A DNA stretch of 64,000 nt from Dehalococcoidales bacterium (GCA_035529395.1 DATKWT010000091.1:135-64134), one strand, 5' to 3'. Counted from the stretch's first letter, positions 3,416 through 13,329 are shown. Notes: generated by a model from the sequence alone, not told the origin. Translations and numbers: made by a program.

Positions 3416-3444
3416 TTGACATGCAGGCAAATCAGAGTTAGTAT
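3416..3444 (+). promoter_or_regulatory. Sigma-70-like promoter upstream of the DUF134 gene (TTGACA-17 nt-TAGTAT)
   Basis: -35 TTGACA at 3416-3421, 17-nt spacer, -10 TAGTAT at 3439-3444, 47 nt upstream of the ATG at 3491. Confidence 0.55.
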
Positions 3445-3446
3445 TG

Positions 3447-3466
3447 TTATGGGCATATGACCATAA
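3447..3466. promoter_or_regulatory. 20-bp near-perfect palindrome TTATGGGCATATGACCATAA (operator candidate)
   Basis: 9 of 10 positions pair. It starts 3 nt after the -10 hexamer, so it covers the expected transcription start. Confidence 0.45.
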
Positions 3467-3490: not shown

Positions 3491-3982
3491 ATGGTAAGAA
3501 TGGGCAGGCCACCGCTCTGGCGTCGAGTTAACAACATACCTGATGTGCCCTACTTCAAACCGGCCGGGGTACCGCTGACCGCACTGGAAGAGGTACAGTT
3601 GTCGGTTGAGGAAGTAGAAGCAATTCGCCTGAAGGACCTTGAGCGTTTAGCACAAGAGGGTTGCGCTCAAAGGATGAGTGTCTCGCGTACCACCTTTGCT
3701 CGTATCCTGACTTCAGCCCGGCAGAAGATGGCTGATGCTTTACTCCATGGTAAGGCGATTAGAATTGATGGCGGTAATTTTCAATTGGCCCTGCAGCATT
3801 TCAGGTGCAATCGTGGCCATGAGTGGGATGTTCCGTTTGAAGTTATGGTAAATACGCCCCCACGGTTCTGCCCTGCCTGCAACACACAAAATATCCTGAG
3901 CACTCAGCTTCCGGGCCCGGGAAGAGGCAGGTCTGGCCGAGGAAGACGCCATAGAGGCGGGCGCAACTGGCAGGAGGTGTAG
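3491..3982 (+). CDS. DUF134-family putative DNA-binding protein with a C-terminal zinc ribbon and Arg/Gly-rich tail
   Basis: The N-terminal part matches the DUF134/UPF0251 pattern (GRPP..R....P....FKP.G....L..V.L..EE.EA.RL.D...L.Q...A..M.VSR.TF.R.L..AR.K.A.AL..G). Downstream lie C..GH..//..CPAC and the tail PGPGRGRSGRGRRHRGGR. Confidence 0.75.
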   Translation: MVRMGRPPLWRRVNNIPDVPYFKPAGVPLTALEEVQLSVEEVEAIRLKDLERLAQEGCAQRMSVSRTTFARILTSARQKMADALLHGKAIRIDGGNFQLALQHFRCNRGHEWDVPFEVMVNTPPRFCPACNTQNILSTQLPGPGRGRSGRGRRHRGGRNWQEV

Positions 3983-3983
3983 A

Positions 3984-4454
3984 GTGGAAACGCAGTTGGT
4001 ACCGGCCGAGAGCAACACAGGTGGGAAACCGAATGCTCGCAGCACAGAACAGCGCAGGATAATCCTGAGAATTATTCAACAGGCCGGTGGACACCTTGAT
4101 GCGGATGATATCTACCGCCTGGCCCGGAAAGACTTGCCTGTCATCAGTTTGTCTACCGTGTACCGTACCCTGCAATTATTCCGGAAATTAGGGCTAATTG
4201 AAGAGCATCAGTTCAGTGACATGCGGCGGCGTTATGAAAGTGTGCCCCGCGCGAAGCATCATCACCTGGTATGCCTGGGCTGCGGTCGGGTGCTTGAGTT
4301 CAACTGCCCATCGACGGAGCGATTGAAATCCAGGATAAGCCGGCAAGAAGGATTCGAGGTTACTGACGCCGAAGTACGTCTCGAGGGCTACTGTCCCGAA
4401 TGTAGAAGTCGCCTATCGGATAGAATGATTGATACTGAACAGGGCAATAAATAG
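3984..4454 (+). CDS. Fur-family metalloregulator (paralogue 1)
   Basis: Winged-helix segment SLSTVYRTLQLFRKLGLI, HHHLVCLGCG and a C-terminal CPEC (structural Zn site). GTG start lies 5 nt after GGAGGT. Fur, Zur and PerR cannot be told apart from sequence alone. Confidence 0.85.
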   Translation: METQLVPAESNTGGKPNARSTEQRRIILRIIQQAGGHLDADDIYRLARKDLPVISLSTVYRTLQLFRKLGLIEEHQFSDMRRRYESVPRAKHHHLVCLGCGRVLEFNCPSTERLKSRISRQEGFEVTDAEVRLEGYCPECRSRLSDRMIDTEQGNK

Positions 4455-4468
4455 AGGAGGTGAGCGAA

Positions 4469-4666
4469 ATGCCGTTTGAAATGGGACCTGCCGGATGGGC
4501 TTATACCTATCCATATGCTTACCGTCACTATATTCCATCACTCCTGGTATGGCCCTGGCGGGGTTACCGCGGTTGTGGCTGGGGTCGTGGCAGGGGCCGC
4601 GGATTTGGTCGGCGCTGGTTTGCCCGCAACTGGTACCCCGGTGGTAAATCTACATATGAGGTATGA
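4469..4666 (+). CDS. Small aromatic and Arg/Gly-rich protein (65 aa), function unknown
   Basis: AGGAGG lies 8 nt upstream of the ATG at 4469 (the ORF track starts at the GTG at 4460). It contains WRGYRGCGWGRGRGRGFGRRWFARNW. It is the first of a run of Gly/Arg-rich genes. Confidence 0.45.
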   Translation: MPFEMGPAGWAYTYPYAYRHYIPSLLVWPWRGYRGCGWGRGRGRGFGRRWFARNWYPGGKSTYEV

Positions 4667-4735
4667 ATGCCGAAAAGTAAACAGGACATTGTTTCGAAAA
4701 AGGTTTGAAGCGCTCAGAGAACAGGAGGTTGGAAA

Positions 4736-5083
4736 ATGCCTAATGGATTTGGTAGGGGGTTCGGCTTCGGAAGAGGCAGGGGGTTTGGCTTTAGAGGAAG
4801 CTCTCCCTCCTGGCCGTACGTTGGCAGGGGTAGAGGTGGACTGCCGAGGAGTGCCTACTTCATGGGCGGTGTCGGTATGCCACCGGCCTGGGACTACCCA
4901 CAGCCCCAATACATGGGGCCCCAATACATTGGGGCGCCATCTGCACCGGGCAATGTTCCCTTTTCGCCTCAGATGACCAGAGAAGAGGAACTCAGCTATC
5001 TACAGGACCAGGCAAAAGGAATAACGGAACAACTCGACGGGATTGAGACCAGGATGCGTGACCTGGAAAAAGAAAAGGAATAG
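4736..5083 (+). CDS. DUF5320-like Gly/Arg-rich protein with a C-terminal coiled coil
   Basis: AGGAGG precedes the ATG. N-terminus is MPNGFGRGFGFGRGRGFGFRG. It shares APGNVPFSP and the heptad tail EEELSYLQDQAKGITEQLDGIETRMRDLEKEKE with the next gene. Confidence 0.65.
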   Translation: MPNGFGRGFGFGRGRGFGFRGSSPSWPYVGRGRGGLPRSAYFMGGVGMPPAWDYPQPQYMGPQYIGAPSAPGNVPFSPQMTREEELSYLQDQAKGITEQLDGIETRMRDLEKEKE

Positions 5084-5135
5084 GACACCACTTATCACAA
5101 TATAGACTAAAACAGTTGGAAAAAGGAGGCGAACA

Positions 5136-5432
5136 ATGCCAGGATTTAACGGTACCGGCCCGAGGGGAATGGGGCCAATGACAGGCGGTGGACGGGGTTT
5201 TTGCAGTCCCTGGGGAAGAGGGGCTTATCAACGCGGGTATGGTGTTCCGCGGACGGCGTATGGTAATCCCTACTACGGGGCCTGGCCAGTTGCTCCCGGT
5301 AATGCACCCTTTGCTCCTGGTGTAGGCCGTGAGCAGGAGCTTGGTTTTCTGCAACAGCAAGCTCAGGTCATGAAGGAGCAGCTGGAGCAAATAGAGGTCA
5401 GAATACAAGAGATAGCAATCGAGAAGAAGTAA
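5136..5432 (+). CDS. DUF5320-family protein
   Basis: N-terminus MPGFNGTGPRGMGPMTGGGRGFC matches my recollection of the DUF5320 signature (MPRGDGTGP.G.GP.TGRG.G.C). C-terminal coiled coil is EQELGFLQQQAQVMKEQLEQIEVRIQE. AAGGAGG RBS. Confidence 0.7.
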   Translation: MPGFNGTGPRGMGPMTGGGRGFCSPWGRGAYQRGYGVPRTAYGNPYYGAWPVAPGNAPFAPGVGREQELGFLQQQAQVMKEQLEQIEVRIQEIAIEKK

Positions 5433-5441
5433 GGAGAGGTT

Positions 5442-6038
5442 ATGAAGATTGCGATTTCAGCAACAGAACCCACTCTCGAAGCCGAGGTAGACCCTCGCTT
5501 CGGGCGCTGTCAGCATTTCATTATTGCTGACTCTGAAACGATGGAGTTTGAAGCCGTCGATAATACCAGTGCTATGGCTTCAGGTGGGGCAGGAATCGCC
5601 ACTGCCCAGGTGATTTCCAGCAAGGGTGTACAGGCTGTGCTCACCGGTAATTGCGGTCCAAACGCTCATCAGGTGCTCTCGGCCGCCGGGATTCAGGTGA
5701 TTACCGGCGCATCCGGCAAGATAAAGGATGCTATTCAGGATTACGTGGCCGGTAAGTTCCAGGCTAGCTCACAGGCTAACGTGCCTGACCACGCCGGAAT
5801 GAATGCTGTTCCTGGCATACAATCTGGCGGAGGTTCCGGTATGGGCAGAGGCATGGGCATGGGCATGGGCCGTGGTATGGGTATGGGAGCCGGAATGCCA
5901 TCACCAGTCAACCAGACACCGCCGCCCCAGACACCGGAGCAAAACCTCAAGACACTCAGGGAACAGTCGCAAGCACTGGCACAACAGCTGGCTGAGATGC
6001 AGCGTAAGATTGAGGACATGGAAAAGAAAGAGAAATAA
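5442..6038 (+). CDS. NifX/NifB-like (dinitrogenase FeMo-cofactor-biosynthesis domain) protein fused to a (GM/GR) repeat and a DUF5320-type coiled coil
   Basis: The N-terminal ~105 aa carry DPRFGRC.HF, GGAG, VLTGNCGPNA and AGI.V, as in NifX-like carriers. The C-terminus is GGGSGMGRGMGMGMGRGMGMGAGM followed by PEQNLKTLREQSQALAQQLAEMQRKIEDMEKKEK. Confidence 0.8.
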   Translation: MKIAISATEPTLEAEVDPRFGRCQHFIIADSETMEFEAVDNTSAMASGGAGIATAQVISSKGVQAVLTGNCGPNAHQVLSAAGIQVITGASGKIKDAIQDYVAGKFQASSQANVPDHAGMNAVPGIQSGGGSGMGRGMGMGMGRGMGMGAGMPSPVNQTPPPQTPEQNLKTLREQSQALAQQLAEMQRKIEDMEKKEK

Positions 6039-6071
6039 GCAAACTCATTTAAACAAACGGGAGGTGCGATT

Positions 6072-6302
6072 ATGCCCAGAGGAGACGGAACCGGACCCCC
6101 TCAGGGTGGTGGTCCGGGTGCGGGGAGAGGTATGCCCGGAAGAAGCAGGGGTGCCGGGAGAATGGGGGGAACACGTGCCGGAGCCGGTCCTGATGGTGAG
6201 TGTGTCTGTCCGGGTTGTGGTGCCAGAGTATCACATCAGGTGGGTGGACCCTGTTACAATATGAGTTGCCCCAGATGTGGGACCAAGATGGTGAGAGCAT
6301 GA
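6072..6302 (+). CDS. DUF5320-like N-terminus fused to a 4-Cys zinc ribbon (76 aa)
   Basis: MPRGDGTGPPQGGGPGAGRGMPGRSRGAGRMGG followed by CVCPGCG..(17)..CPRCG. GGGAGG RBS. Its stop overlaps the next start (ATGA). Confidence 0.65.
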   Translation: MPRGDGTGPPQGGGPGAGRGMPGRSRGAGRMGGTRAGAGPDGECVCPGCGARVSHQVGGPCYNMSCPRCGTKMVRA

Positions 6303-7165
6303 TAATAGCGGTGGCCAGTGGCAAAGGGGGAACGGGCAAGACATTGGTGGCTACCAGTCTTGCCCTCTCCTTGGAAGACAGAGGGGGAGTACAGATCCTG
6401 GATTGTGATGTGGAGGAGCCTAATGCCCATGTCTTTCTAAAGCCACGATTTGACGGCAGCGAACCTGTCAGTATTCCGATACCCAGGGTAGATGAGGAAA
6501 AGTGCACACACTGTGGCAAATGTGCCGAGGTCTGTGCATTCAATGCCATTGCGGTACTCGGTCAGTACGTGATGGTCTTTCCCGAACTCTGTCACGGTTG
6601 CGGTGCCTGTAGCTACCTCTGCCCGGAAAATGCCATCACCGAGGAGTACAGAGAAATTGGCGTTGTCGAATGGGGGTATTCGGATGGCGTTGAGTTTGCC
6701 CACGGTAAACTCAACGTAGGCGAGGCTATGGCCCCGCCTGTGATTAAAAAGGTAAAACAACGTGCCAATCGTGATGGTTCGGTTATTCTTGATGTTCCCC
6801 CGGGCACATCCTGCCCGGTGGTGGAAGCAGTTGGGGACAGCGATTTCTGCATCCTGGTAACGGAACCTACTCCATTCGGACTTAATGACCTCATTCTGGC
6901 GGTAGAGACGGTGAGAGAACTTGGCGTACCGTGTGGGGTCGTACTAAATCGTGCCGGGGTAGGGGATAATAACGTTGAGCAATACTGCCAGCGGGAGAAT
7001 ATTCCGGTCATGCTTACTATCCCTTTGGATACGGATATCGCACGTCTTTATTCCAGAGGGGTAACTCTGGTTGAAGGGATGCCGGAGTGGAAGAAGGATT
7101 TCGTCGGGCTGTATAATCAGATTGGAGATATTGTAAGTGAAAGAACTGGTAGTCCTGAGCGGTAA
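6299..7165 (+). CDS. MinD/ParA-type P-loop ATPase with an inserted 2x[4Fe-4S] ferredoxin domain (copy 1)
   Basis: Start taken at MIIAVASGKGGTGKT (deviant Walker A), which is the ATGA overlap with the upstream stop. The track's 6200 start adds 33 aa that overlap the upstream gene. Cluster motifs are CTHCGKCAEVC and CHGCGACSYLCP. Confidence 0.85.
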   Translation: MIIAVASGKGGTGKTLVATSLALSLEDRGGVQILDCDVEEPNAHVFLKPRFDGSEPVSIPIPRVDEEKCTHCGKCAEVCAFNAIAVLGQYVMVFPELCHGCGACSYLCPENAITEEYREIGVVEWGYSDGVEFAHGKLNVGEAMAPPVIKKVKQRANRDGSVILDVPPGTSCPVVEAVGDSDFCILVTEPTPFGLNDLILAVETVRELGVPCGVVLNRAGVGDNNVEQYCQRENIPVMLTIPLDTDIARLYSRGVTLVEGMPEWKKDFVGLYNQIGDIVSERTGSPER

Positions 7166-7997
7166 AGGGGGAACGGGCAAGACCAGCATCGTCGGTTCCT
7201 TTGCCTCTCTGTCTAAGAGCAAGGTTCTCGTCGACTGCGATGTAGATGCTGCTGACCTTCACCTCATCCTGAACCCGACCGCACGGGATAAGCACGAGTT
7301 CTGGAGCGGACAGGTTGCCTTTATCGATAGAGAGAAGTGTAACGAGTGCGGCTTGTGCCAGGAGCTGTGTCGTTTCGATGCTATCAGGGATTTCAAGGTT
7401 AACCCCGTTTCCTGTGAAGGCTGTGGTTTCTGCTCTCACATATGCCCGGTGGAAGCCATAACCATGGAGGATAACCTGTCCGGACAGTGGTTTATCTCCG
7501 ATACCGGGTATGGTCCTCTGGTGCATGCCAGGCTGGGAATTGCCCAGGAAAACTCAGGGAAGCTGGTGGCTCATGTAAGGCAACAGGGCAGGAAACTTGC
7601 CGAAAAGGACGGGATAGATTACATTGTTAGTGATGGGCCGCCCGGTATTGGCTGTCCGGTAATCTCATCCCTGTCCGGAGCTGGCCTGGCTCTATTAGTA
7701 ACCGAGCCAACACTTTCGGGGATACATGACCTGGAGCGAGTAATCGGTGTCTGCCTTCACTTCGGTGTTCCGGTAATGGTGTGTATCAACAAGTACGACC
7801 TGAATGAAGATAACACCCACCGAATTGAAAGCTACTGTCTTGAACAGGGGCTGGAAATAGCCGGCAGGGTTTCATTTGATAATGCAGTTACGGAGTCAAT
7901 CGTACGGGGTATTCCTGTGGTGGAATATACCCGGGACAATGTCACGCACGAGATAGAATCGCTGTGGCGGTGCGTCAAGAACAAACTGGAAGGGTAG
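7137..7997 (+). CDS. MinD/ParA-type P-loop ATPase with an inserted 2x[4Fe-4S] ferredoxin domain (copy 2)
   Basis: VLSGKGGTGKT, CNECGLCQELC and CEGCGFCSHICP. It overlaps copy 1 by 29 nt. Confidence 0.85.
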   Translation: MKELVVLSGKGGTGKTSIVGSFASLSKSKVLVDCDVDAADLHLILNPTARDKHEFWSGQVAFIDREKCNECGLCQELCRFDAIRDFKVNPVSCEGCGFCSHICPVEAITMEDNLSGQWFISDTGYGPLVHARLGIAQENSGKLVAHVRQQGRKLAEKDGIDYIVSDGPPGIGCPVISSLSGAGLALLVTEPTLSGIHDLERVIGVCLHFGVPVMVCINKYDLNEDNTHRIESYCLEQGLEIAGRVSFDNAVTESIVRGIPVVEYTRDNVTHEIESLWRCVKNKLEG

Positions 7998-8013
7998 AAG
8001 GGGATAGTGTGCC

Positions 8014-8196
8014 ATGCCAATATACGAGTATGAATGCATGAAGTGCGGCCAGAAGTTCGAGCTCCGCCGGAGCATGGCCGACAGTGGCAAGGATACACAG
8101 TGTCCCAGGTGTGGGGCCGAGGACTCACGGCGTGTCTTCTCGGTATTTGCCACGGGTTCTTCGGTTGGTGCCTGCGCTCCAGGCGGTTCCACCTGA
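8014..8196 (+). CDS. FmdB-family (CxxC_CxxC_SSSS) zinc-ribbon protein
   Basis: MPIYEYECMKCG...CPRCG, the typical N-terminal signature of this family. Confidence 0.75.
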   Translation: MPIYEYECMKCGQKFELRRSMADSGKDTQCPRCGAEDSRRVFSVFATGSSVGACAPGGST

Positions 8197-8262
8197 AGCA
8201 TCAGCCAGTGAGGCAGGTTGTCTCACCCGGGATAAGGGAAGTCTGAAAGGAGGAATAAAGTC

Positions 8263-8499
8263 GTGCCGCTCTATGACTTTGAATGCCGGGATTGTGGTAG
8301 AGTATCAGAGGTGCTGCTTCGTATTTCCGGGCAGGTAGCTCATTGTTCTGAGTGTGGCAGTGCCAACGTGGAACGGCTTATCTCGGCATCATATATGATA
8401 AAGACGGATGTGTCAGGCCCGGGTACCACCTGCTGCGGACGGAGCGAGCGCTGTGAGGCGTCTCCTTGCTCCACCGGAGATGTGTGCCGCAGAGGTTGA
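8263..8499 (+). CDS. FmdB-family zinc-ribbon protein with a Cys-rich tail
   Basis: MPLYDFECRDCG...CSECG plus the C-terminus TTCCGRSERCEASPCSTGDVC. GTG start lies 8 nt after AGGAGG. Confidence 0.7.
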   Translation: MPLYDFECRDCGRVSEVLLRISGQVAHCSECGSANVERLISASYMIKTDVSGPGTTCCGRSERCEASPCSTGDVCRRG

Positions 8500-8626
8500 A
8501 GGAATGGTCCTGCTTAACCTTGACCCCGGGAATCCCGCGAGGGGAAACGGGTGGCAGTGAAAATACAGGTTAAACCGGAAAACCGGAACACGAGTTAATA
8601 TTGATTGGAAGAATTTGGAGGTGCCT

Positions 8627-8965
8627 ATGAGGTACGCAGTACCGGTAAACAATGGTATATTATCACCACACTTCGGTCACTGTGAGCATTTTGCCATGCT
8701 CGATGTTGACGTCGAAAAAAAGGAGATACTCAAGAATGAGCTTGTGCCGTCACCGGGCCATCAGCCGGGTCTTCTTCCGCAGTGGCTGGCCGACCAGGGG
8801 GTCTCGGTAGTAATTGCTGGTGGTATGGGTTCGCGCGCCCAGGACCTTTTCCAGCAGAACCGCATCCAGGTCGTTATCGGTGCCCAGGAAGGTGACCCGG
8901 AGAAGGCGGTGCTGAGCTATCTGCATGAAGAATTGGCTACCGAAGATAACATATGTGACCACTAA
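8627..8965 (+). CDS. NifX/NifB-like (FeMo-cofactor-biosynthesis domain) protein, copy 2
   Basis: Start at the ATG 5 nt after GGAGGT (the track starts at a TTG at 8615). Motifs are PHFGHCEHF, VIAGGMG and IQVV.G. Confidence 0.8.
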   Translation: MRYAVPVNNGILSPHFGHCEHFAMLDVDVEKKEILKNELVPSPGHQPGLLPQWLADQGVSVVIAGGMGSRAQDLFQQNRIQVVIGAQEGDPEKAVLSYLHEELATEDNICDH

Positions 8966-8994
8966 AGGATGAAAATGGGAATAGAGGAGTATAG

Positions 8995-9999
8995 ATGGTA
9001 ACTGAGGAGCAAGTAAGAGAAAGCCTGGAGGGAGTGCTTGTACCCGCTATCAAACGCAGTATTATCAGGCTGAATCTGGTGCGTGAGGTAGCTATCACTG
9101 ACGGCAAAGTCAGGATTGTTCTGGCTTCGACGGGGCTGATTACGGGTGCTCAGGACTGGGTTAAGGACCAGGTTGTGGAGGTCGTGAAGAAGCTGCCCGA
9201 AGCTGGCGAAGTAGAAGTAGAATTTGTTGAGGCCACGCCGGCTGAGTTAAATGAGATTGGTCATGTTATTGCGATAATGAGTGGGAAGGGTGGTGTAGGC
9301 AAGTCGTTGATGGCCAGCCTTACTGCCATCTCACTGAGACGACTGGGCTATGAAGTAGGTATCCTGGATGCTGATATCACCGGCCCCAGTATACCCAGGA
9401 TGTTCGGCATCAATACCCGGCCTGGCGGTAACGAAAGTGGCATGTTACCGGTCCTGTCAAAATCAGAGATTGAAGTCATGTCCATCAACCTTCTTCTGCC
9501 CAGCGAGGACGACGCTGTTATCTGGCGTGGTCCACTTATCGGCAAGGCGATTACCCAGTTCTGGGAAGAAGTGCTCTGGGGCAAGCTTGATTACCTGATT
9601 ATCGACCTTCCACCGGGAACGGCCGACGCTCCTCTTACAGTGATGCAGACACTACCTATTTCCGGTGTAGTTATTGTTTTCACGCCTCAGGACCTGACCG
9701 CAATGGTTGTCAGAAAAGCCGTAAACATGGCGCAGAAAATGGAGAAGCCAATCCTGGGAGTAGTCGAGAACATGGCCTATCTATATGTCCCTGAGATAGA
9801 TAAGAAGATTGAGCTGTTCGGTAGCAGCCAGGGGGAGGAGATGGCCCGGGTATCCAATGCACCGTTCCTGGGACAGTTGCCCATAGACCCGGAACTGGCA
9901 AAGCTATGTGACGAGGGGAATGTTGAGCGATATAGTGCCGAGTTAGTAGATAACCTGGGTAAGTCTCTTTCCGAGGCGACATCAGGCGATAAAGCATAA
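8995..9999 (+). CDS. Mrp/NBP35/ApbC-family Fe-S cluster carrier ATPase with an N-terminal DUF59-like domain
   Basis: The N-terminal ~85 aa are MIP18/DUF59-like, followed by [21 protein letters not shown] and IIDLPPGT. Confidence 0.85.
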   Translation: MVTEEQVRESLEGVLVPAIKRSIIRLNLVREVAITDGKVRIVLASTGLITGAQDWVKDQVVEVVKKLPEAGEVEVEFVEATPAELNEIGHVIAIMSGKGGVGKSLMASLTAISLRRLGYEVGILDADITGPSIPRMFGINTRPGGNESGMLPVLSKSEIEVMSINLLLPSEDDAVIWRGPLIGKAITQFWEEVLWGKLDYLIIDLPPGTADAPLTVMQTLPISGVVIVFTPQDLTAMVVRKAVNMAQKMEKPILGVVENMAYLYVPEIDKKIELFGSSQGEEMARVSNAPFLGQLPIDPELAKLCDEGNVERYSAELVDNLGKSLSEATSGDKA

Positions 10000-10015
10000 G
10001 TCAGGAGGTTGTGCT

Positions 10016-10465
10016 GTGGCTGTATCACGGGAAAAGCTCGAAGAACTGCTCAAGCAGGAGATGAGGAAGATTTACTCCGAGACAGTTATCGACCACAGCA
10101 TGCACCCGAGAAACACCGGTAATCCTGGTGACGCCGACGGTTATGCGAAAGTAACCGGTCCCTGTGGCGATACCATGGAAATGTGGCTCAAAGTAAAAGA
10201 TGACATAATCCGTGATGCCAGTTTCATGACCGATGGTTGTAGCACAACCATTGCTGCCAGCAGCATGGTTACCGAGATGGCGAAAGGCAGGACTGCGGGC
10301 GAGGCCCAGAGGATTAGCCAGCGGGATATCCTGGATGCTCTGGGTGGGTTACCTGAGGACGGCGAGCACTGTGCCCTTCTTGCCTCAGATACGCTGAAGG
10401 AAGCGATAAGGGACTACCTCGCCATGAAAAGAGAGCCGTGGAAGAAGGGCTACCGGCAACACTAG
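10016..10465 (+). CDS. IscU/NifU-N-type Fe-S scaffold protein
   Basis: Three scaffold Cys in context (GPCGD, DGCSTTIA, HCALLA). GTG start lies 7 nt after AGGAGG. Confidence 0.85.
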   Translation: MAVSREKLEELLKQEMRKIYSETVIDHSMHPRNTGNPGDADGYAKVTGPCGDTMEMWLKVKDDIIRDASFMTDGCSTTIAASSMVTEMAKGRTAGEAQRISQRDILDALGGLPEDGEHCALLASDTLKEAIRDYLAMKREPWKKGYRQH

Positions 10466-10485
10466 CTGAGCAATAGTATAATCCG

Positions 10486-10541
10486 GACTCTCCAGGTCAG
10501 TATACCGGGAACTCATCGGACTGGCATGGAGGGTCTTTTTT
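10486..10541 (+). terminator. Rho-independent terminator candidate after the IscU gene
   Basis: Imperfect 16-nt arms GACTCTCCAGGTCAGT / ACTGGCATGGAGGGTC (3 mismatches) followed by TTTTTT. Confidence 0.5.
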
Positions 10542-10684
10542 CTATCATCACCCTGTCTACTCCCGCTGGACAACATCCAACTCAGAACCCGCGCTTGATT
10601 AAACTTTCTGTATCTGCTATCCGTGGGTGTTCAGTGCTATCTGAAGCGTGTGACGTGGTATTATACCCCGATTTATAGCAGGAA

Positions 10685-10713
10685 TTGACATAGCTATACG
10701 GGTTGTTTATAAT
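10685..10713 (+). promoter_or_regulatory. Consensus sigma-70 promoter (TTGACA-17 nt-TATAAT) upstream of Fur paralogue 2
   Basis: Both hexamers match consensus exactly with a 17-nt spacer, 36 nt upstream of the ATG at 10749. Confidence 0.7.
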
Positions 10714-10748
10714 AGTAGTTGGGAATGAGACGCATTAGCGATACTTAA

Positions 10749-11174
10749 ATGACTACAAAGAGCATTCGTAGAGAACTGAACGTACCGGGACTGAGAGCTA
10801 CTAACCAGCGGCTTCTGGTGATGCAGATAATACAACATGGGCAAGGGCACCTGGATGCTGATGAAATCTATCGTCGGGCCCGAGAGAAAAACCCCCGCCT
10901 CAGCCTGTCCACCGTTTATCGTACCCTGCAAACTCTTAAGAAATATGGTTTGATAGAGGAGCTTCATCTTGATGAGGGGCATCACCATTATGAGAAGCGG
11001 ACTGCCCAGCACCACCACCTGGTCTGTCTCGGGTGTGGCAGGGTCGTTGAATTCCGGTACCCGTTAGCCAGCCTGATAAAGAAGAATGTCAGAGAAGCCA
11101 GAGAATTTAATATTACCAGTAGCGAAATCAGAATGACGGGCTATTGCCCGAAGTGTCGTCAAGAGAGGGAATAG
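10749..11174 (+). CDS. Fur-family metalloregulator (paralogue 2)
   Basis: SLSTVYRTLQTLKKYGLI, HHHLVCLGCG and a C-terminal CPKC. It lies immediately upstream of feoAB. Confidence 0.85.
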   Translation: MTTKSIRRELNVPGLRATNQRLLVMQIIQHGQGHLDADEIYRRAREKNPRLSLSTVYRTLQTLKKYGLIEELHLDEGHHHYEKRTAQHHHLVCLGCGRVVEFRYPLASLIKKNVREAREFNITSSEIRMTGYCPKCRQERE

Positions 11175-11249
11175 CGTACGGGCAAGCTCTTTGTGACACA
11201 GTGTATTTTTACTCGGAACTATAAAGGCTGGGTGTAACCAGAGAAATGG

Positions 11250-11582
11250 ATGCGGTACATGTTCAGATTCGGGGGCAGGTTCAGACATGGATTTCAGGGC
11301 AGGTTCAAACGTGGATTTGGGTGGGGTGAAGGGCAACTAACTCTAGCGCGAATGCAGACCGGGCAGAGCGGCATAGTGGTCCAGGTACTGTCCGGACATG
11401 GTGTGATTAAGCGTCTTGGTGCTCTGGGACTCAGACCTGGGCTGAGAGTTACCAAGGTTAATTCTTCATTCATGCGGGGACCGGTAACGGTACAGTTCGG
11501 TAATACCCAGGTAGCTATTGGCTTCGGCATGGCCAGCAGGATAGTGGTGGAACCGATAGAATCCCGGAATGAAAGGCCATAG
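11250..11582 (+). CDS. feoA: FeoA-domain protein with an Arg/Gly/Phe-rich N-terminal extension
   Basis: FeoA SH3-like core (LA.M..GQ.G.VV.V....G...RL.ALGLRPG..V.......GP....FG...VAIG...A..I.V). The ~29-aa N-terminus is MRYMFRFGGRFRHGFQGRFKRGFGWGEG. Confidence 0.75.
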   Translation: MRYMFRFGGRFRHGFQGRFKRGFGWGEGQLTLARMQTGQSGIVVQVLSGHGVIKRLGALGLRPGLRVTKVNSSFMRGPVTVQFGNTQVAIGFGMASRIVVEPIESRNERP

Positions 11583-13329
11583 CGTGGTGACCAGCAACAG
11601 CAGCAAGAGCACTGGCATCAAGAGAGTGCTGCTGATGGGTAACCCCAATGTGGGCAAGAGTGTCATTTTCTCCCGTCTGACTGGCACCCGGGTGATTGCT
11701 TCTAATTATCCGGGCACCACGGTAGGCTACAGCCAGGGGTTCATGAACCTGGGGGAAGACAGGGTCGAGGTTATTGATGTACCCGGTACCTATACGCTGG
11801 AACCAACCAGCGAGGCTGAAGAAATAGCCTCCGAGATGCTCAACACCGGAGACTTAATCATAAATGTGGTTGACGCTACCAATCTGGAGAGAAATCTTTA
11901 TCTGACTCAGCAATTATTGGAACGGGACATACCGCTAGTAGTGGCGCTCAATATCTGGGATGAGACCGAACATCGAGGAATACATATTGAGCTGGATAAG
12001 CTGAGGGAACGCCTGGGGGTGCCGGTTATTCCCACCGTGGCGGTAAGCGGTCAGGGGATAAAGGAACTCGTTACCAGTATTGTCAGCGCAACTTCACCTG
12101 ATACTCCTGCCCGCAGCTATGATGAGCGCTGGGCTACTATTGGCGGTATTATCAGCCAGGTCCAGCGCATTACTCATCGACATCATACCTGGCGGGAGCA
12201 CCTCGGGGATGCCAGCGTGCAGCCATTAGCCGGTGGCATCATAGCCTTAGTTGTTCTTGCCGTTGCCTTTCTGGTAGTCCGCTTCATCGGGGAAAACCTC
12301 ATCGGTTATGTGCTTGAGCCCCTGTTCGACACTCTGTGGGCGCCGGTGGTATTGAGGTTAAGTGACATCCTCGGCGGTTCGGGATTTTTCCATGATATCC
12401 TGATTGGTAAGATTGTTGGTGGCGAAGTCAACTTTGTTGAATCATTTGGCTTGTTGACCACCGGGCTCTTTGTCCCCTTTGGCATGGTGTTGCCTTACAT
12501 AATATCTTTCTATCTGGTGCTGGGCATGTTCGAGGATACAGGTTACCTGCCGCGGCTGGCAGTTCTGATGGATACCCTGATGCACCGTCTGGGCTTGCAC
12601 GGCTATGCAATCATTCCGAGTATGCTGGGTCTGGGCTGCAATGTACCGGCTGTTCTGGCCACCCGCATCCTGGAGAGCAAGAGGGAGAGATTCATTGCGG
12701 CAACATTGATATCTATTGCCATACCCTGTGCTGCCCTGCAAGCAATGATATTCGGCCTGGTGGGGGAGCAGGGGGCGCAGTATGTGGCCATTGTCTTCGG
12801 GACACTGTTCGTAGTCTGGATTATTCTGGGAGTAATAATAAACCGCTTCGCCAGAGGATTCAGCCCCGAGTTGCTGATAGAGATACCACCCTATCGTATG
12901 CCACCGTGGCGGACCGTATTGCAGAAGCTGTGGATGAGGGTCAACGGTTTCCTGAAAGAGGCTATCCCCATAATCCTGGGTGCTGTGCTGGTAATAAATA
13001 TACTCTATACTTTGGGGATATTTGATGCTATCGCTGATTTTGCATCACCTGTGGTAACCGGTCTCCTGGGACTACCCAAGGAGGCTGTAACGGCCCTGGT
13101 TATCGGTTTCCTGCGTAAAGATGTAGCCCTGGGCATGCTCGCTCCCCTGGGAATGAGTGCCAACCAGCTGGTCGTTGGTAGCGTTGTCCTGGCCATGTTC
13201 TTCCCCTGCGTGGCTACATTTGTAGTTCTTCTGAGAGAGCTCGGGGTTGTCAATATGCTCAAATCGGTGGCAATAATGATTGCCACCGCATTACTGGTGG
13301 GAGGGGCACTAAACCTGATTCTGCAGTAG
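11569..13329 (+). CDS. feoB: Ferrous iron transporter FeoB
   Basis: The N-terminal G-domain has GNPNVGKS and DVPGTY, followed by a polytopic membrane domain. It overlaps feoA by 14 nt. Confidence 0.9.
   Translation: MKGHSVVTSNSSKSTGIKRVLLMGNPNVGKSVIFSRLTGTRVIASNYPGTTVGYSQGFMNLGEDRVEVIDVPGTYTLEPTSEAEEIASEMLNTGDLIINVVDATNLERNLYLTQQLLERDIPLVVALNIWDETEHRGIHIELDKLRERLGVPVIPTVAVSGQGIKELVTSIVSATSPDTPARSYDERWATIGGIISQVQRITHRHHTWREHLGDASVQPLAGGIIALVVLAVAFLVVRFIGENLIGYVLEPLFDTLWAPVVLRLSDILGGSGFFHDILIGKIVGGEVNFVESFGLLTTGLFVPFGMVLPYIISFYLVLGMFEDTGYLPRLAVLMDTLMHRLGLHGYAIIPSMLGLGCNVPAVLATRILESKRERFIAATLISIAIPCAALQAMIFGLVGEQGAQYVAIVFGTLFVVWIILGVIINRFARGFSPELLIEIPPYRMPPWRTVLQKLWMRVNGFLKEAIPIILGAVLVINILYTLGIFDAIADFASPVVTGLLGLPKEAVTALVIGFLRKDVALGMLAPLGMSANQLVVGSVVLAMFFPCVATFVVLLRELGVVNMLKSVAIMIATALLVGGALNLILQ

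Follow-up and report, generated by a model that had tools for sequence, protein, structure and literature searches.

Arg/Gly-rich cationic segments on DUF5320-type, NifX-like, DUF134 and FeoA proteins of a widespread ORP-type iron-sulfur gene island, and their possible role in binding iron-sulfide species

The window analysed here, by which is meant the whole stretch of 64,000 nucleotides (nt) from a metagenome-assembled genome (MAG) of a Dehalococcoidales bacterium, contains at bases 3.4-13.3 kb an island that is well supported as an orange-protein (ORP)-type operon for iron-sulfur (Fe-S) handling, joined to two Fur genes and FeoAB, in which seven proteins carry a segment rich in Arg and Gly. 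Five of these seven belong, or on their sequence features probably belong, to one family of small proteins, as paralogues or fusions of DUF5320 and its divergent relatives, and the other two, DUF134 and FeoA, each have a conserved cationic extension of their own, separate from that family. By analogy with the IssA protein of P. furiosus, these Arg-Gly (RG), aromatic and Gly-rich segments may act as polyanion-binding and assembly modules for iron-sulfide species on NifX/ORP domains, which is the likeliest of the readings considered, at about even odds.

The segments lie in the following genes, each given with its window coordinates in nt and its length in amino acids (aa).

3491-3982, + strand: DUF134 (UPF0251), a predicted DNA-binding protein (Pfam PF02001, 1.2e-25; NCBI HUV44343.1); segment at residues 141-158, nt 3911-3964.
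4469-4666, + strand: ORF4469, an open reading frame (ORF) of 65 aa (NCBI HUV44345.1); segment at residues 33-58 in the numbering of the 68-aa ORF that begins at GTG 4460, nt 4556-4633.
4736-5083, + strand: ORF4736, 115 aa, with a sub-threshold match to Pfam DUF5320; segment at residues 4-21, nt 4745-4798.
5136-5432, + strand: ORF5136, a canonical DUF5320 protein of 98 aa (Pfam PF17253, 1.6e-19; NCBI HUV44347.1, 'DUF5320 domain-containing protein'); segment at residues 6-22, nt 5151-5201.
5442-6038, + strand: fusion of a NifX/ORP-like (Nitro_FeMo-Co) domain (PF02579, 1.7e-25) with DUF5320 (PF17253, 7.2e-09); segment at residues 129-152, nt 5826-5897.
6072-6302, + strand: ORF6072, 76 aa, with a Gly/Arg N-terminus and a zinc ribbon, outside Pfam families; segment at residues 12-39, nt 6105-6188.
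11250-11582, + strand: FeoA with an N-terminal extension (Pfam FeoA at residues 31-102); segment at residues 6-28, nt 11265-11333.

The seven peptides had been quoted in a sequence-only reading of this DNA, and every one of them is an exact match in the sequence. When the 372 ORFs of at least 50 aa on both strands were ranked by the number of RG/GR dipeptides in their best 20-aa span (the RG score), the top five scores (9, 8, 7, 5 and 5) fell to ORF4460/4469, DUF134, ORF4736, ORF6072 and ORF5136, all of them within 3491-6302; credible genes outside the island score 3 or less. The NifX fusion scores 4, which is equalled by two overlapping-frame junk ORFs, and FeoA reaches 3, a score shared by several ordinary genes. 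This all-ORF ranking was used instead of a gene set of the longest non-overlapping ORFs, in which real small genes were lost to junk ORFs.

A shuffled proteome of the window's composition gave a mean of 0.08 proteins at an RG score of 5 or more. Shuffling each protein 1000 times within its own composition reached the observed score in 0/1000 cases for DUF134, for ORF4469 and for ORF4736, in 3/1000 for ORF5136 and in 2/1000 for the NifX fusion, with 132/1000 for ORF6072, which is extremely Gly/Arg-rich overall, and 472/1000 for FeoA. By ranking and shuffles together, the recurrence of the segments is real and non-random, as had been proposed: the RG signal is strong for five proteins, and that of the NifX fusion is real but of another flavour, a (G-M-G-R)n repeat with two Arg only. 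The FeoA segment is a cationic, aromatic and Gly-rich repeat of R-F/G-F tetrapeptides with no RG run.

An origin in GC bias, which the sequence-only reading had also argued against, is rejected because the G+C content of the island (0.50-0.54) is lower than that of most of the window (0.55-0.58). No DNA repeat common to the seven segments was found, only short internal tandem duplications whose units measure 12 nt in ORF4469 and the NifX fusion (5841-5881) and 24 nt in ORF4736 (4751-4798) and FeoA (11273-11318), those of the last three proteins being in frame, so the likeness lies at the level of protein and composition and not in recent DNA copying between genes. The copy number of the repeats also differs among homologues, the FeoA of one related locus (L008) having one 8-aa unit fewer and the GMGR count being widely variable.

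The segments could still be an artefact, either of low-complexity DNA that is mis-framed or does not code, or of noise in composition, with starts and stops called wrongly; this is extremely improbable. ORF4469 was skipped by gene callers on six identical metagenome contigs, the start calls of ORF6072 vary between contigs, and RG-coding DNA gives long junk ORFs in other frames; yet strong Shine-Dalgarno sequences precede ORF4469, ORF4736 and ORF6072, the same segments occur in homologues across phyla with their indels in frame, the segment is part of Pfam models, shuffling does not reproduce the signal, and the lower G+C of the island points the same way. Conservation refutes the artefact for six of the seven. 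A codon-usage frame test of the small RG ORFs lacks discrimination because amino-acid composition dominates it, even the certainly coding DUF134 tail scoring better in a wrong frame.

The spurious ORFs that RG/Gly-coding DNA yields in other frames of the + strand, here at 4476-4976 (166 aa) and 5803-6264 (153 aa), can displace real small genes in length-based gene calling. They may be the reason why ORF4469 went uncalled on the six contigs, although it is listed at NCBI as a hypothetical protein of a Dehalococcoidales MAG.

The kinship of five of the proteins is drawn from DUF5320 (PF17253), the family model of which includes the Arg/Gly-rich N-terminal motif and has a gathering cut-off of 27 bits. 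Above this cut-off stand ORF5136, at 71.3 bits, and the NifX fusion, whose C-terminal half scores 37.1 bits, and below it ORF4736 (17.0 bits, E=0.014, in an end-to-end alignment) and ORF4469 (9.3 bits, E=3.4); ORF6072 had no match in Pfam, DUF5320 included, or in NCBIfam. Two features were read off the homologues and do not amount to a published definition, an N-terminal MPxGDGTGP signature and a C-terminal coiled coil, the former being present in 32/35 DUF5320 homologues, 17/37 ORF6072-like proteins and 1/8792 background ORFs. ORF5136 has both; ORF4736 has the coiled coil and a degenerate N-terminus, ORF4469 has MPFEMGP only, and ORF6072 has the signature with a zinc ribbon in place of the coiled coil. 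It is well supported that the island holds an expanded set of small proteins of the DUF5320 kind, disordered and cationic, rich in Gly, Arg and aromatics and in part in Met; three of them are stand-alone, another is joined to a NifX-like domain and the last to a zinc ribbon.

Among the stand-alone proteins, ORF5136 begins with MPGFNGTGPRGMGPMTGGGRGFC, followed by a Pro/Tyr-rich linker and the coiled coil. ORF4736, which has a strong Shine-Dalgarno sequence upstream, opens with a cationic, disordered GFGRG N-terminus (+7), continues through a linker rich in Pro and Tyr and closes with an acidic coiled coil, and its homologues in related loci carry a GFRGxSPPWPYVGRGRGGLPRC motif and a coiled coil; on these features it is placed as a divergent DUF5320-type protein.

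ORF4469 is a cationic small protein rich in Trp, Gly, Arg and Tyr (WRGYRGCGWGRGRGRGFGRRWFARNW) and probably represents a degenerate DUF5320-type protein that keeps the N-terminal part only. A GGAGG Shine-Dalgarno sequence stands 8 nt upstream of ATG 4469, which is the true start, and not GTG 4460. Its beginning, MSEMPFE, may be set beside that of the short N-only DUF5320 proteins, MSDMPFGDGTGP, and the ending WY[PS]RW of its four in-frame sequence variants beside their PYPRW; its position just after DUF134 is that of short MS[DE]MPFGDGTGP proteins in two related loci (L010 and L016). BLASTP against the short proteins that hold the equivalent position in L018 and L016 was not significant (E = 3.8 and 0.046), and composition-adjusted statistics of this kind are unable to establish homology for such sequences.

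One further observation concerns the DNA around this gene. Fur 1 and ORF4469 (3984-4666) form a presence/absence difference with respect to two related loci (L007:3088-3365 and L008:3385-3660) that are 95-96% identical in the MinD-ferredoxin protein used as query, have about 560 nt fewer and keep the first 45 nt or so of Fur 1. At the junction, a GGTGG(T/G)AAA(T/C)C motif is present near codon 13 of Fur 1 and again at the 3' end of ORF4469, and ORF4469 ends in YPGGKSTYEV in the window and in Y[PS]RW in the variants.

ORF6072 joins a Gly/Arg N-terminus of the MPRGDGTGP type to a four-Cys zinc ribbon (CVCPGCG...PC...CPRCG), and its Shine-Dalgarno sequence GGGAGGTG is kept in relatives. Its homologues, found at the same position across phyla, include intermediates in which a full canonical DUF5320 N-terminus stands ahead of the zinc ribbon, and the family comprises 1083 representative clusters at E<=1e-3, fusions to NifX domains among them. 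What looked like strain-level indels in this gene proved to be start choices of gene callers and one premature stop, a TAC-to-TAA change in L003 (6056-6241) that truncates the protein to 61 aa with loss of the last CPxCG pair of the zinc ribbon. Larger arrangements of the module were also seen: two giant proteins with a membrane anchor, of 985 aa (P0243) and 772 aa (P0244), combine transmembrane and PDZ domains, a NifX-like domain, three to five ORF6072-type zinc ribbons and a second NifX-like domain, and a third (P0257) has an RnfB-like Fe-S N-terminus fused to a MPRGDGTGP/zinc-ribbon module.

The NifX-DUF5320 fusion consists of a Nitro_FeMo-Co domain (residues 1-110; PF02579 at residues 13-102), the (GMGR)n repeat, a Pro-rich stretch and, last, the C-terminal helix of DUF5320. 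Among solved structures, its globular domain is best matched by the ORP structure 2WFB (1.1e-19) and then by MTH1175 (8e-18). More than 7780 homologues of this architecture of NifX-like domain, (GMGR)n repeat, Pro-rich stretch and coiled coil were found, and the best 120 of them all have both Pfam domains, with a variable number of GMGR copies. In Bathyarchaeia and Anaerolineae there are NifX proteins with short HFGMGRGRGRGR tails. DUF134 is in two related loci itself fused to a NifX-like domain through a linker (L017:6547-7548, where the linker is RG-rich, and L019:8841-9701), so that the putative regulator is physically tied to a cluster-binding domain.

In physical terms, all seven segments are net positive and Gly-rich with an isoelectric point (pI) of 9.6-12, and four of the seven (ORF4469, ORF4736, ORF5136 and FeoA) are rich in aromatics; the repeat of the NifX fusion has a pI of 9.6, a net charge of +1 and no aromatics. 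The low-complexity segments are predicted to be disordered: AlphaFold2, run on the fusion with a 38-sequence alignment, gives a predicted local distance difference test (pLDDT) score above 90 for residues 1-110, below 50 for residues 120-162 and a helix at 165-197, and in FeoA residues 8-23 stay below 50 ahead of a confident barrel. The DUF5320-type proteins are block polyampholytes, with a cationic N-terminal block (+5 to +7), a neutral Pro/Tyr linker and an acidic coiled coil (-2 to -5). ORF4469 and ORF5136 have a single Cys, and the homologues of ORF4736 have one in a GGLPRC motif.

Such charge patterns would also suit a docking or self-assembly tag, in which the cationic segments would bind the acidic ORP proteins (MinD-ferredoxin, Mrp, NifX2 and IscU) or the acidic DUF5320 coiled coils, so that the Fe-S machinery would be gathered in a multivalent scaffold or condensate, with no inorganic polyanion as ligand. 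This was the main idea of the sequence-only reading and is a possible, less likely alternative. The opposed charges of the block polyampholytes fit it, as do the acidic enzymatic partners (pI 4.5-5.6), the physical complex formed by the ORP proteins of Desulfovibrio with MrpORP at a cell pole (PMC6345978), and the freely variable copy number of the repeats, which is expected of valency-type interactions. It gives no account, however, of the consistent fusion to NifX-like cluster-binding domains, nor of why a transcription factor and FeoA should need the same tag, and it is compatible with polyanion binding rather than exclusive of it.

As to motif class, the definitions of RGG/RG motifs, which reportedly go back to Thandapani et al. 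2013, were applied as RGG-X0-4-RGG for di-/tri-RGG and RG-X0-4-RG-X0-4-RG for tri-RG. No di- or tri-RGG repeat occurs in any island protein; tri-RG is confined to DUF134, ORF4469 and ORF4736, ORF5136 has di-RG, and neither is found in the NifX fusion, ORF6072 or FeoA. An RGG box is thereby ruled out, and the description of the segments as RGG-box-like had to be dropped. Nor did the idea of one tag on seven different proteins survive, since five share DUF5320 kinship, the FeoA repeat is different and the DUF134 tail is its own.

The DUF134 protein has a C-terminal zinc-ribbon-like segment of the CxxH/CxxC type, followed by the RG tail PGPGRGRSGRGRRHRGGR, with a net charge of +6 over the last 28 aa. 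It had been asked whether orthologues share this tail, and they do, with at least 4 RG/GR per 20 aa in 23/41 of those in related loci; it is C-terminal, after the zinc-ribbon-like segment, in Dehalococcoidia, ANME-1 and Tritonobacter, and the corresponding stretch in Bathyarchaeia is an N-terminal RRRGRRGR. Nothing functional on DUF134, UPF0251 or COG1342 was found in the searched literature.

It is with this protein that nucleic-acid binding comes into question, on the model of eukaryotic RG/RGG motifs or AT-hooks, with DNA, RNA or G-quadruplexes (G4) as targets, the small proteins as nucleoid- or RNA-associated factors and the DUF134 tail strengthening operator binding. DUF134 is predicted to bind DNA through a helix-turn-helix fold like sigma-70 region 4, its tail GRGRSGRGRRHRGGR is a tri-RG motif, a palindrome lies just past the promoter-like site upstream of its gene, and an archaeal survey placed a DUF134 and a DUF5320 protein of M. 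mazei among its four best RG-rich G4-motif matches (PMC7565180). Against this, an RGG repeat or an RNA-binding domain is present in 0/7 proteins, the genomic context is wholly one of Fe/S metabolism across phyla, the segments are fused to NifX-like domains and to zinc ribbons within Fe-S proteins, and the (GMGR)n repeat is barely charged. Nucleic-acid binding is plausible for the DUF134 tail alone and much less so for the other segments, and as a general explanation it is quite unlikely.

In FeoA, a cationic, aromatic and Gly-rich N-terminal extension of 28 aa (nt 11250-11336) carries a (x-R-F-x)n repeat. Among the best 120 homologues, 56 (of at least 90 aa) have this extension, with a variable copy number, and the repeat precedes the conserved 'PEGKQ-TLA-MQTGQSG' barrel entry; a mis-called start, which had been raised as a possible source of the segment, is ruled out by its retention in these homologues. 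The FeoA of Bathyarchaeia (L043:4288-4590, L064:5387-5683 and L067:15123-15419) has no N-terminal extension and an internal basic insertion of His, Arg and Gly, for example CRHRARWGRGHRD.

The search for related loci took the first MinD-ferredoxin ATPase as query against one genome per species, and matched Dehalococcoidales MAGs at 95-96% identity, other Dehalococcoidia at 62-71%, and Methanocellales, Bathyarchaeia, ANME-1/Methanophagales, Bacillota, Desulfobacterota and others at 53-60%. Across these phyla the order DUF134, DUF5320-type, NifX (with tail), ORF6072-type, MinD, MinD, (zinc ribbon), NifX, Mrp and IscU recurs, and gene order is kept across Dehalococcoidia, Bathyarchaeia, ANME-1, Methanocellales and Bacillota; Fur and FeoAB stand in or alongside the cluster in the window, as they do in several relatives. 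In 58/78 related loci, in bacterial and archaeal phyla, the island contains one or more RG-rich ORFs, and the density of such ORFs in these loci is 2.35 per 10 kb inside the island vs 0.54 outside. The segments had been called unusual for bacteria, which calls for correction: they are usual for this cluster, as the fusion homologues, the ORF6072 clusters and the 58/78 loci attest. On this comparison of sequences, the RG-rich tails are a conserved hallmark of the cluster and no peculiarity of the window, and not rare among anaerobes; thousands of homologues exist, and the window is an unremarkable instance of a cluster that is widespread.

The precedent for polyanion binding is P. furiosus IssA (PF2025), in which a NifX-like IPR003731 domain is followed by a disordered tail of 70 residues (Vaccaro et al. 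2017, PMC5524996). This tail, which is compared here through the published description of its composition, is Pro-rich and then cationic, aromatic and Gly-rich (7 cationic, 14 aromatic and 15 Gly of 70), has one Cys and a W/G/R repeat pattern, and was proposed to wrap anionic thioferrate (FeS2-)n electrostatically, giving rise to Fe-S storage nanoparticles; its chemistry is conserved and its sequence is not (PMC5524996). The anion binding and assembly suggested in the sequence-only reading agree with the one experimental precedent, the binding of thioferrate by the cationic tail of IssA (PMC5524996).

What counts for polyanion binding is the physical linkage of tails to NifX-like domains, with the giant zinc-ribbon/NifX fusions and the DUF134-RG-NifX fusions as further instances, together with synteny, charge, disorder and the IssA precedent. 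Several points weigh against it. The link to IssA is drawn from domain homology and composition, not from homology in the tail sequence. Published sorting asks of IssA a pI of at least 9, fewer than 5 Cys and at least 20% Gly in the C-terminal 40 residues, and of IssX a pI of at least 8 and at least 10% Gly (PMC5524996); the window's fusion has the N-terminal IPR003731/Nitro_FeMo-Co domain and 2 Cys, but its whole-protein pI of 5.62 falls below both cut-offs, as does its 0% Gly in the last 40 residues, a value due to the coiled coil that comes after the repeat, the 15 Gly being internal at residues 111-165. The fusion repeat, with its two Arg (net +1) and many Met, suggests something different from pure electrostatics, for example soft-metal/sulfide contacts. 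Moreover, the tail of DUF134, itself a DNA-binding protein, looks like the GRGR/AT-hook peptides that bind the minor groove, the FeoA repeat is of a different type, and with partners as acidic as these, protein docking would account for cationic tails equally well.

If polyanion binding holds, the tails would be flexible polycations like the C-terminal tail of IssA, giving an electrostatic grip on iron-sulfide polyanions for which exact ligands would be unnecessary. What is bound may be a thioferrate-like (FeS2-)n chain or another anionic cluster of metal and sulfide, of the kind that NifX/ORP/IssA domains hold non-covalently. The cluster would be nucleated on, or held by, the NifX-like domain and wrapped by the (GMGR)n or (GRGF/W)n repeats, which would cancel its charge, and the acidic C-terminal coiled coil of DUF5320 could oligomerise the complex, with MinD-ferredoxin, MrpORP and IscU loading and unloading Fe-S clusters. 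In the most speculative step, the state of the store could be relayed to transcription and Fe(II) import through the tails of DUF134 and FeoA. What the analysis shows is domain identities, synteny, conservation, charge, predicted disorder and the NifX fusions; the iron-sulfide ligand is something we infer, as is this coupling of regulation and import.

A bolder extension is conceivable and, taken as a whole, rather unlikely: the DUF5320 proteins and the tails on NifX-like carriers, DUF134 and FeoA would constitute a distributed system of iron-sulfide storage and buffering, widespread in anaerobic bacteria and archaea, in which NifX/ORP domains seed a co-assembly of protein and a thioferrate-like polyanion, MinD-ferredoxin, MrpORP and IscU service it, and the regulator and the importer sense the same inorganic polymer through their tails. 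If true, this would extend IssA from a curiosity of Thermococcales to a general Fe-S 'ferritin equivalent' of anaerobes, and would give a function to DUF5320, DUF134 and the ORP complex.

The remaining features of the island are as follows.

3416-3444, + strand: promoter-like TTGACA-17-TAGTAT, followed at 3447-3466 by a 20-bp palindrome, TTATGGGCAT/ATGACCATAA (consensus match only).
3984-4454, + strand: Fur 1 (Pfam FUR, 3.1e-34; NCBIfam Fur/PerR).
6275-7165, + strand: MinD/ParA-type P-loop ATPase with a 2x[4Fe-4S] ferredoxin insert, copy 1, Orp3/Orp4-like (Pfam ParA, CbiA and Fer4; NCBIfam).
7137-7997, + strand: MinD/ParA-type P-loop ATPase with a ferredoxin insert, copy 2 (NCBIfam and Pfam).
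8014-8196 and 8263-8499, + strand: two FmdB-type zinc ribbons (TIGR02605, 6.9e-19 and 4.3e-14).
8615-8965, + strand: tail-less NifX-like protein (NifX2), corresponding to the C-terminal 'Di-Nase' domain of MrpORP (PF02579, 3.2e-22; NF041136 positions 265-365, 1.7e-36).
8995-9999, + strand: Mrp/NBP35 Fe-S carrier ATPase, corresponding to the N-terminal part of MrpORP (NF041136 positions 1-234, 4e-94).
10016-10465, + strand: IscU/NifU-type Fe-S scaffold (TIGR03419, 3e-38).
10685-10713, + strand: sigma-70-like promoter, a perfect TTGACA-17-TATAAT (consensus match).
10749-11174, + strand: Fur 2 (NCBIfam).
11569-13329, + strand: FeoB ferrous-iron transporter (Pfam FeoB_N, Gate and FeoB_C on identical contigs).

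The Mrp and NifX2 genes are read as a split MrpORP because they cover positions 1-234 (315.9 bits) and 265-365 (126.3 bits) of NF041136 between them, each under the 450-bit cut-off for the fused protein; the two halves are adjacent genes in reversed order. The assignment of the island to the ORP type follows from this split MrpORP, the matches to 2WFB and MTH1175 and the two MinD-ferredoxin ATPases. Upstream of DUF134, the elements at 3416-3466 are a candidate promoter and operator of the DUF134-to-IscU unit, the palindrome directly downstream of the -10 element being a candidate operator for DUF134 or Fur. The second promoter lies 36 nt upstream of Fur 2, and the two sigma-70-like promoter sequences suggest two transcription units, with Fur2-FeoAB separate. 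Both FmdB-type ribbons also have sub-threshold matches to the NCBIfam 'RPWMISH domain' (7e-11 and 2e-06), and in many Dehalococcoidia loci a ribbon of this sort, or two of them, separates the pair of MinD genes from NifX and Mrp.

Pfam DUF5320, DUF134, the ORP complex and the idea of an IssA-type tail are all on record already, and homologues number in the thousands, so the system is not categorically new. The searched literature gave no account of DUF5320 proteins, NifX-tail fusions, the RG zinc-ribbon family, the regulator and a FeoA clade sharing cationic disordered repeats in one Fe-S island, and their presence together in a conserved island of this kind links the ORP and IssA systems. Iron and sulfide storage and buffering in strict anaerobes is a largely open question: the chemistry of ferritin needs an oxidant, and IssA, to our knowledge the only Fe-S storage protein described so far, has been studied in just one hyperthermophile. 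The island offers a broader set of candidates, namely DUF5320 proteins, NifX-tail fusions and the RG zinc-ribbon family, from Dehalococcoidia to Bathyarchaeia and ANME-1.

Should the tails bind iron-sulfide polyanions, several DUFs and the enigmatic ORP complex would gain a role that simple reconstitution could test, and a prokaryotic example would be at hand of charge-patterned disordered proteins organising an inorganic phase; should they be docking tags only, the outcome would be the more modest one of annotating a conserved module. Overall, this is a solid and testable lead for Fe-S biology rather than a surprise.

Among known systems, the eukaryotic RGG/RG motifs and the AT-hooks, the latter built on a GRP core, share with the island their disordered Arg/Gly repeats, often with aromatics, and tri-RG is present in three island proteins; unlike the eukaryotic RGG/RG proteins, those of the island have no RGG triplet repeats and no RNA recognition motif or K-homology partners, and stand in an Fe/S context. 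The magnetosome proteins Mms6 and MamG/D sit in the membrane, have LG repeats and acidic ends that bind iron, and would interface with an iron mineral. The likeness to them lies in small proteins with Gly-dipeptide repeats encoded beside iron-handling genes, and the difference in that magnetosome genes are not present here. As regards Pfam DUF5320 itself, ORF5136 and the C-terminal half of the fusion fall within the family, ORF4736 and ORF4469 are sub-threshold and ORF6072 has the signature only; mentions of the family in the searched literature were confined to two papers, with no function attached to it.

The ORP complex of D. vulgaris comprises Orp3, Orp4, Orp5, Orp8 and Orp9/MrpORP, the last of which passes Fe-S clusters to Orp3/Orp4 (PMC6345978). 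The island shares with it two paralogous MinD-like ATPases with 2x[4Fe-4S] (6275-7165 and 7137-7997), an orange-protein NifX-like subunit (Orp8, the best match of the fusion in the PDB being 2WFB), counterparts of the Mrp/NBP35 carrier and of its NifX-like domain, and the clustering of the genes. Unlike in Desulfovibrio, MrpORP is split into two genes here, and the regulators found are DUF134 and Fur in place of sigma-54/DVU2106, no search having been aimed at a sigma-54 activator or a -24/-12 promoter. The account of the ORP complex in PMC6345978 makes no mention of DUF5320-type RG proteins, of an RG zinc-ribbon protein or of a linkage to FeoAB.

The closest comparison is that with IssA, for the model of which MTH1175 served as template, and an 'IssX' clade of non-thermophiles with Gly-rich tails was flagged and left uncharacterised (PMC5524996), later papers still describing the homologues outside Pyrococcus as uncharacterised. 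Like IssA, the fusion has a NifX-like domain followed by a disordered, cationic, Gly-rich tail and a Pro-rich stretch, with few Cys, in a context of Fe/S metabolism in which the chemistry of the tail is conserved over its sequence. Unlike in IssA, the (GMGR)n repeat precedes the Pro-rich stretch, a coiled coil caps it and the whole protein is acidic, and the aromatic/Arg/Gly character of the IssA tail sits here on separate small proteins, ORF4469, ORF4736 and ORF5136.

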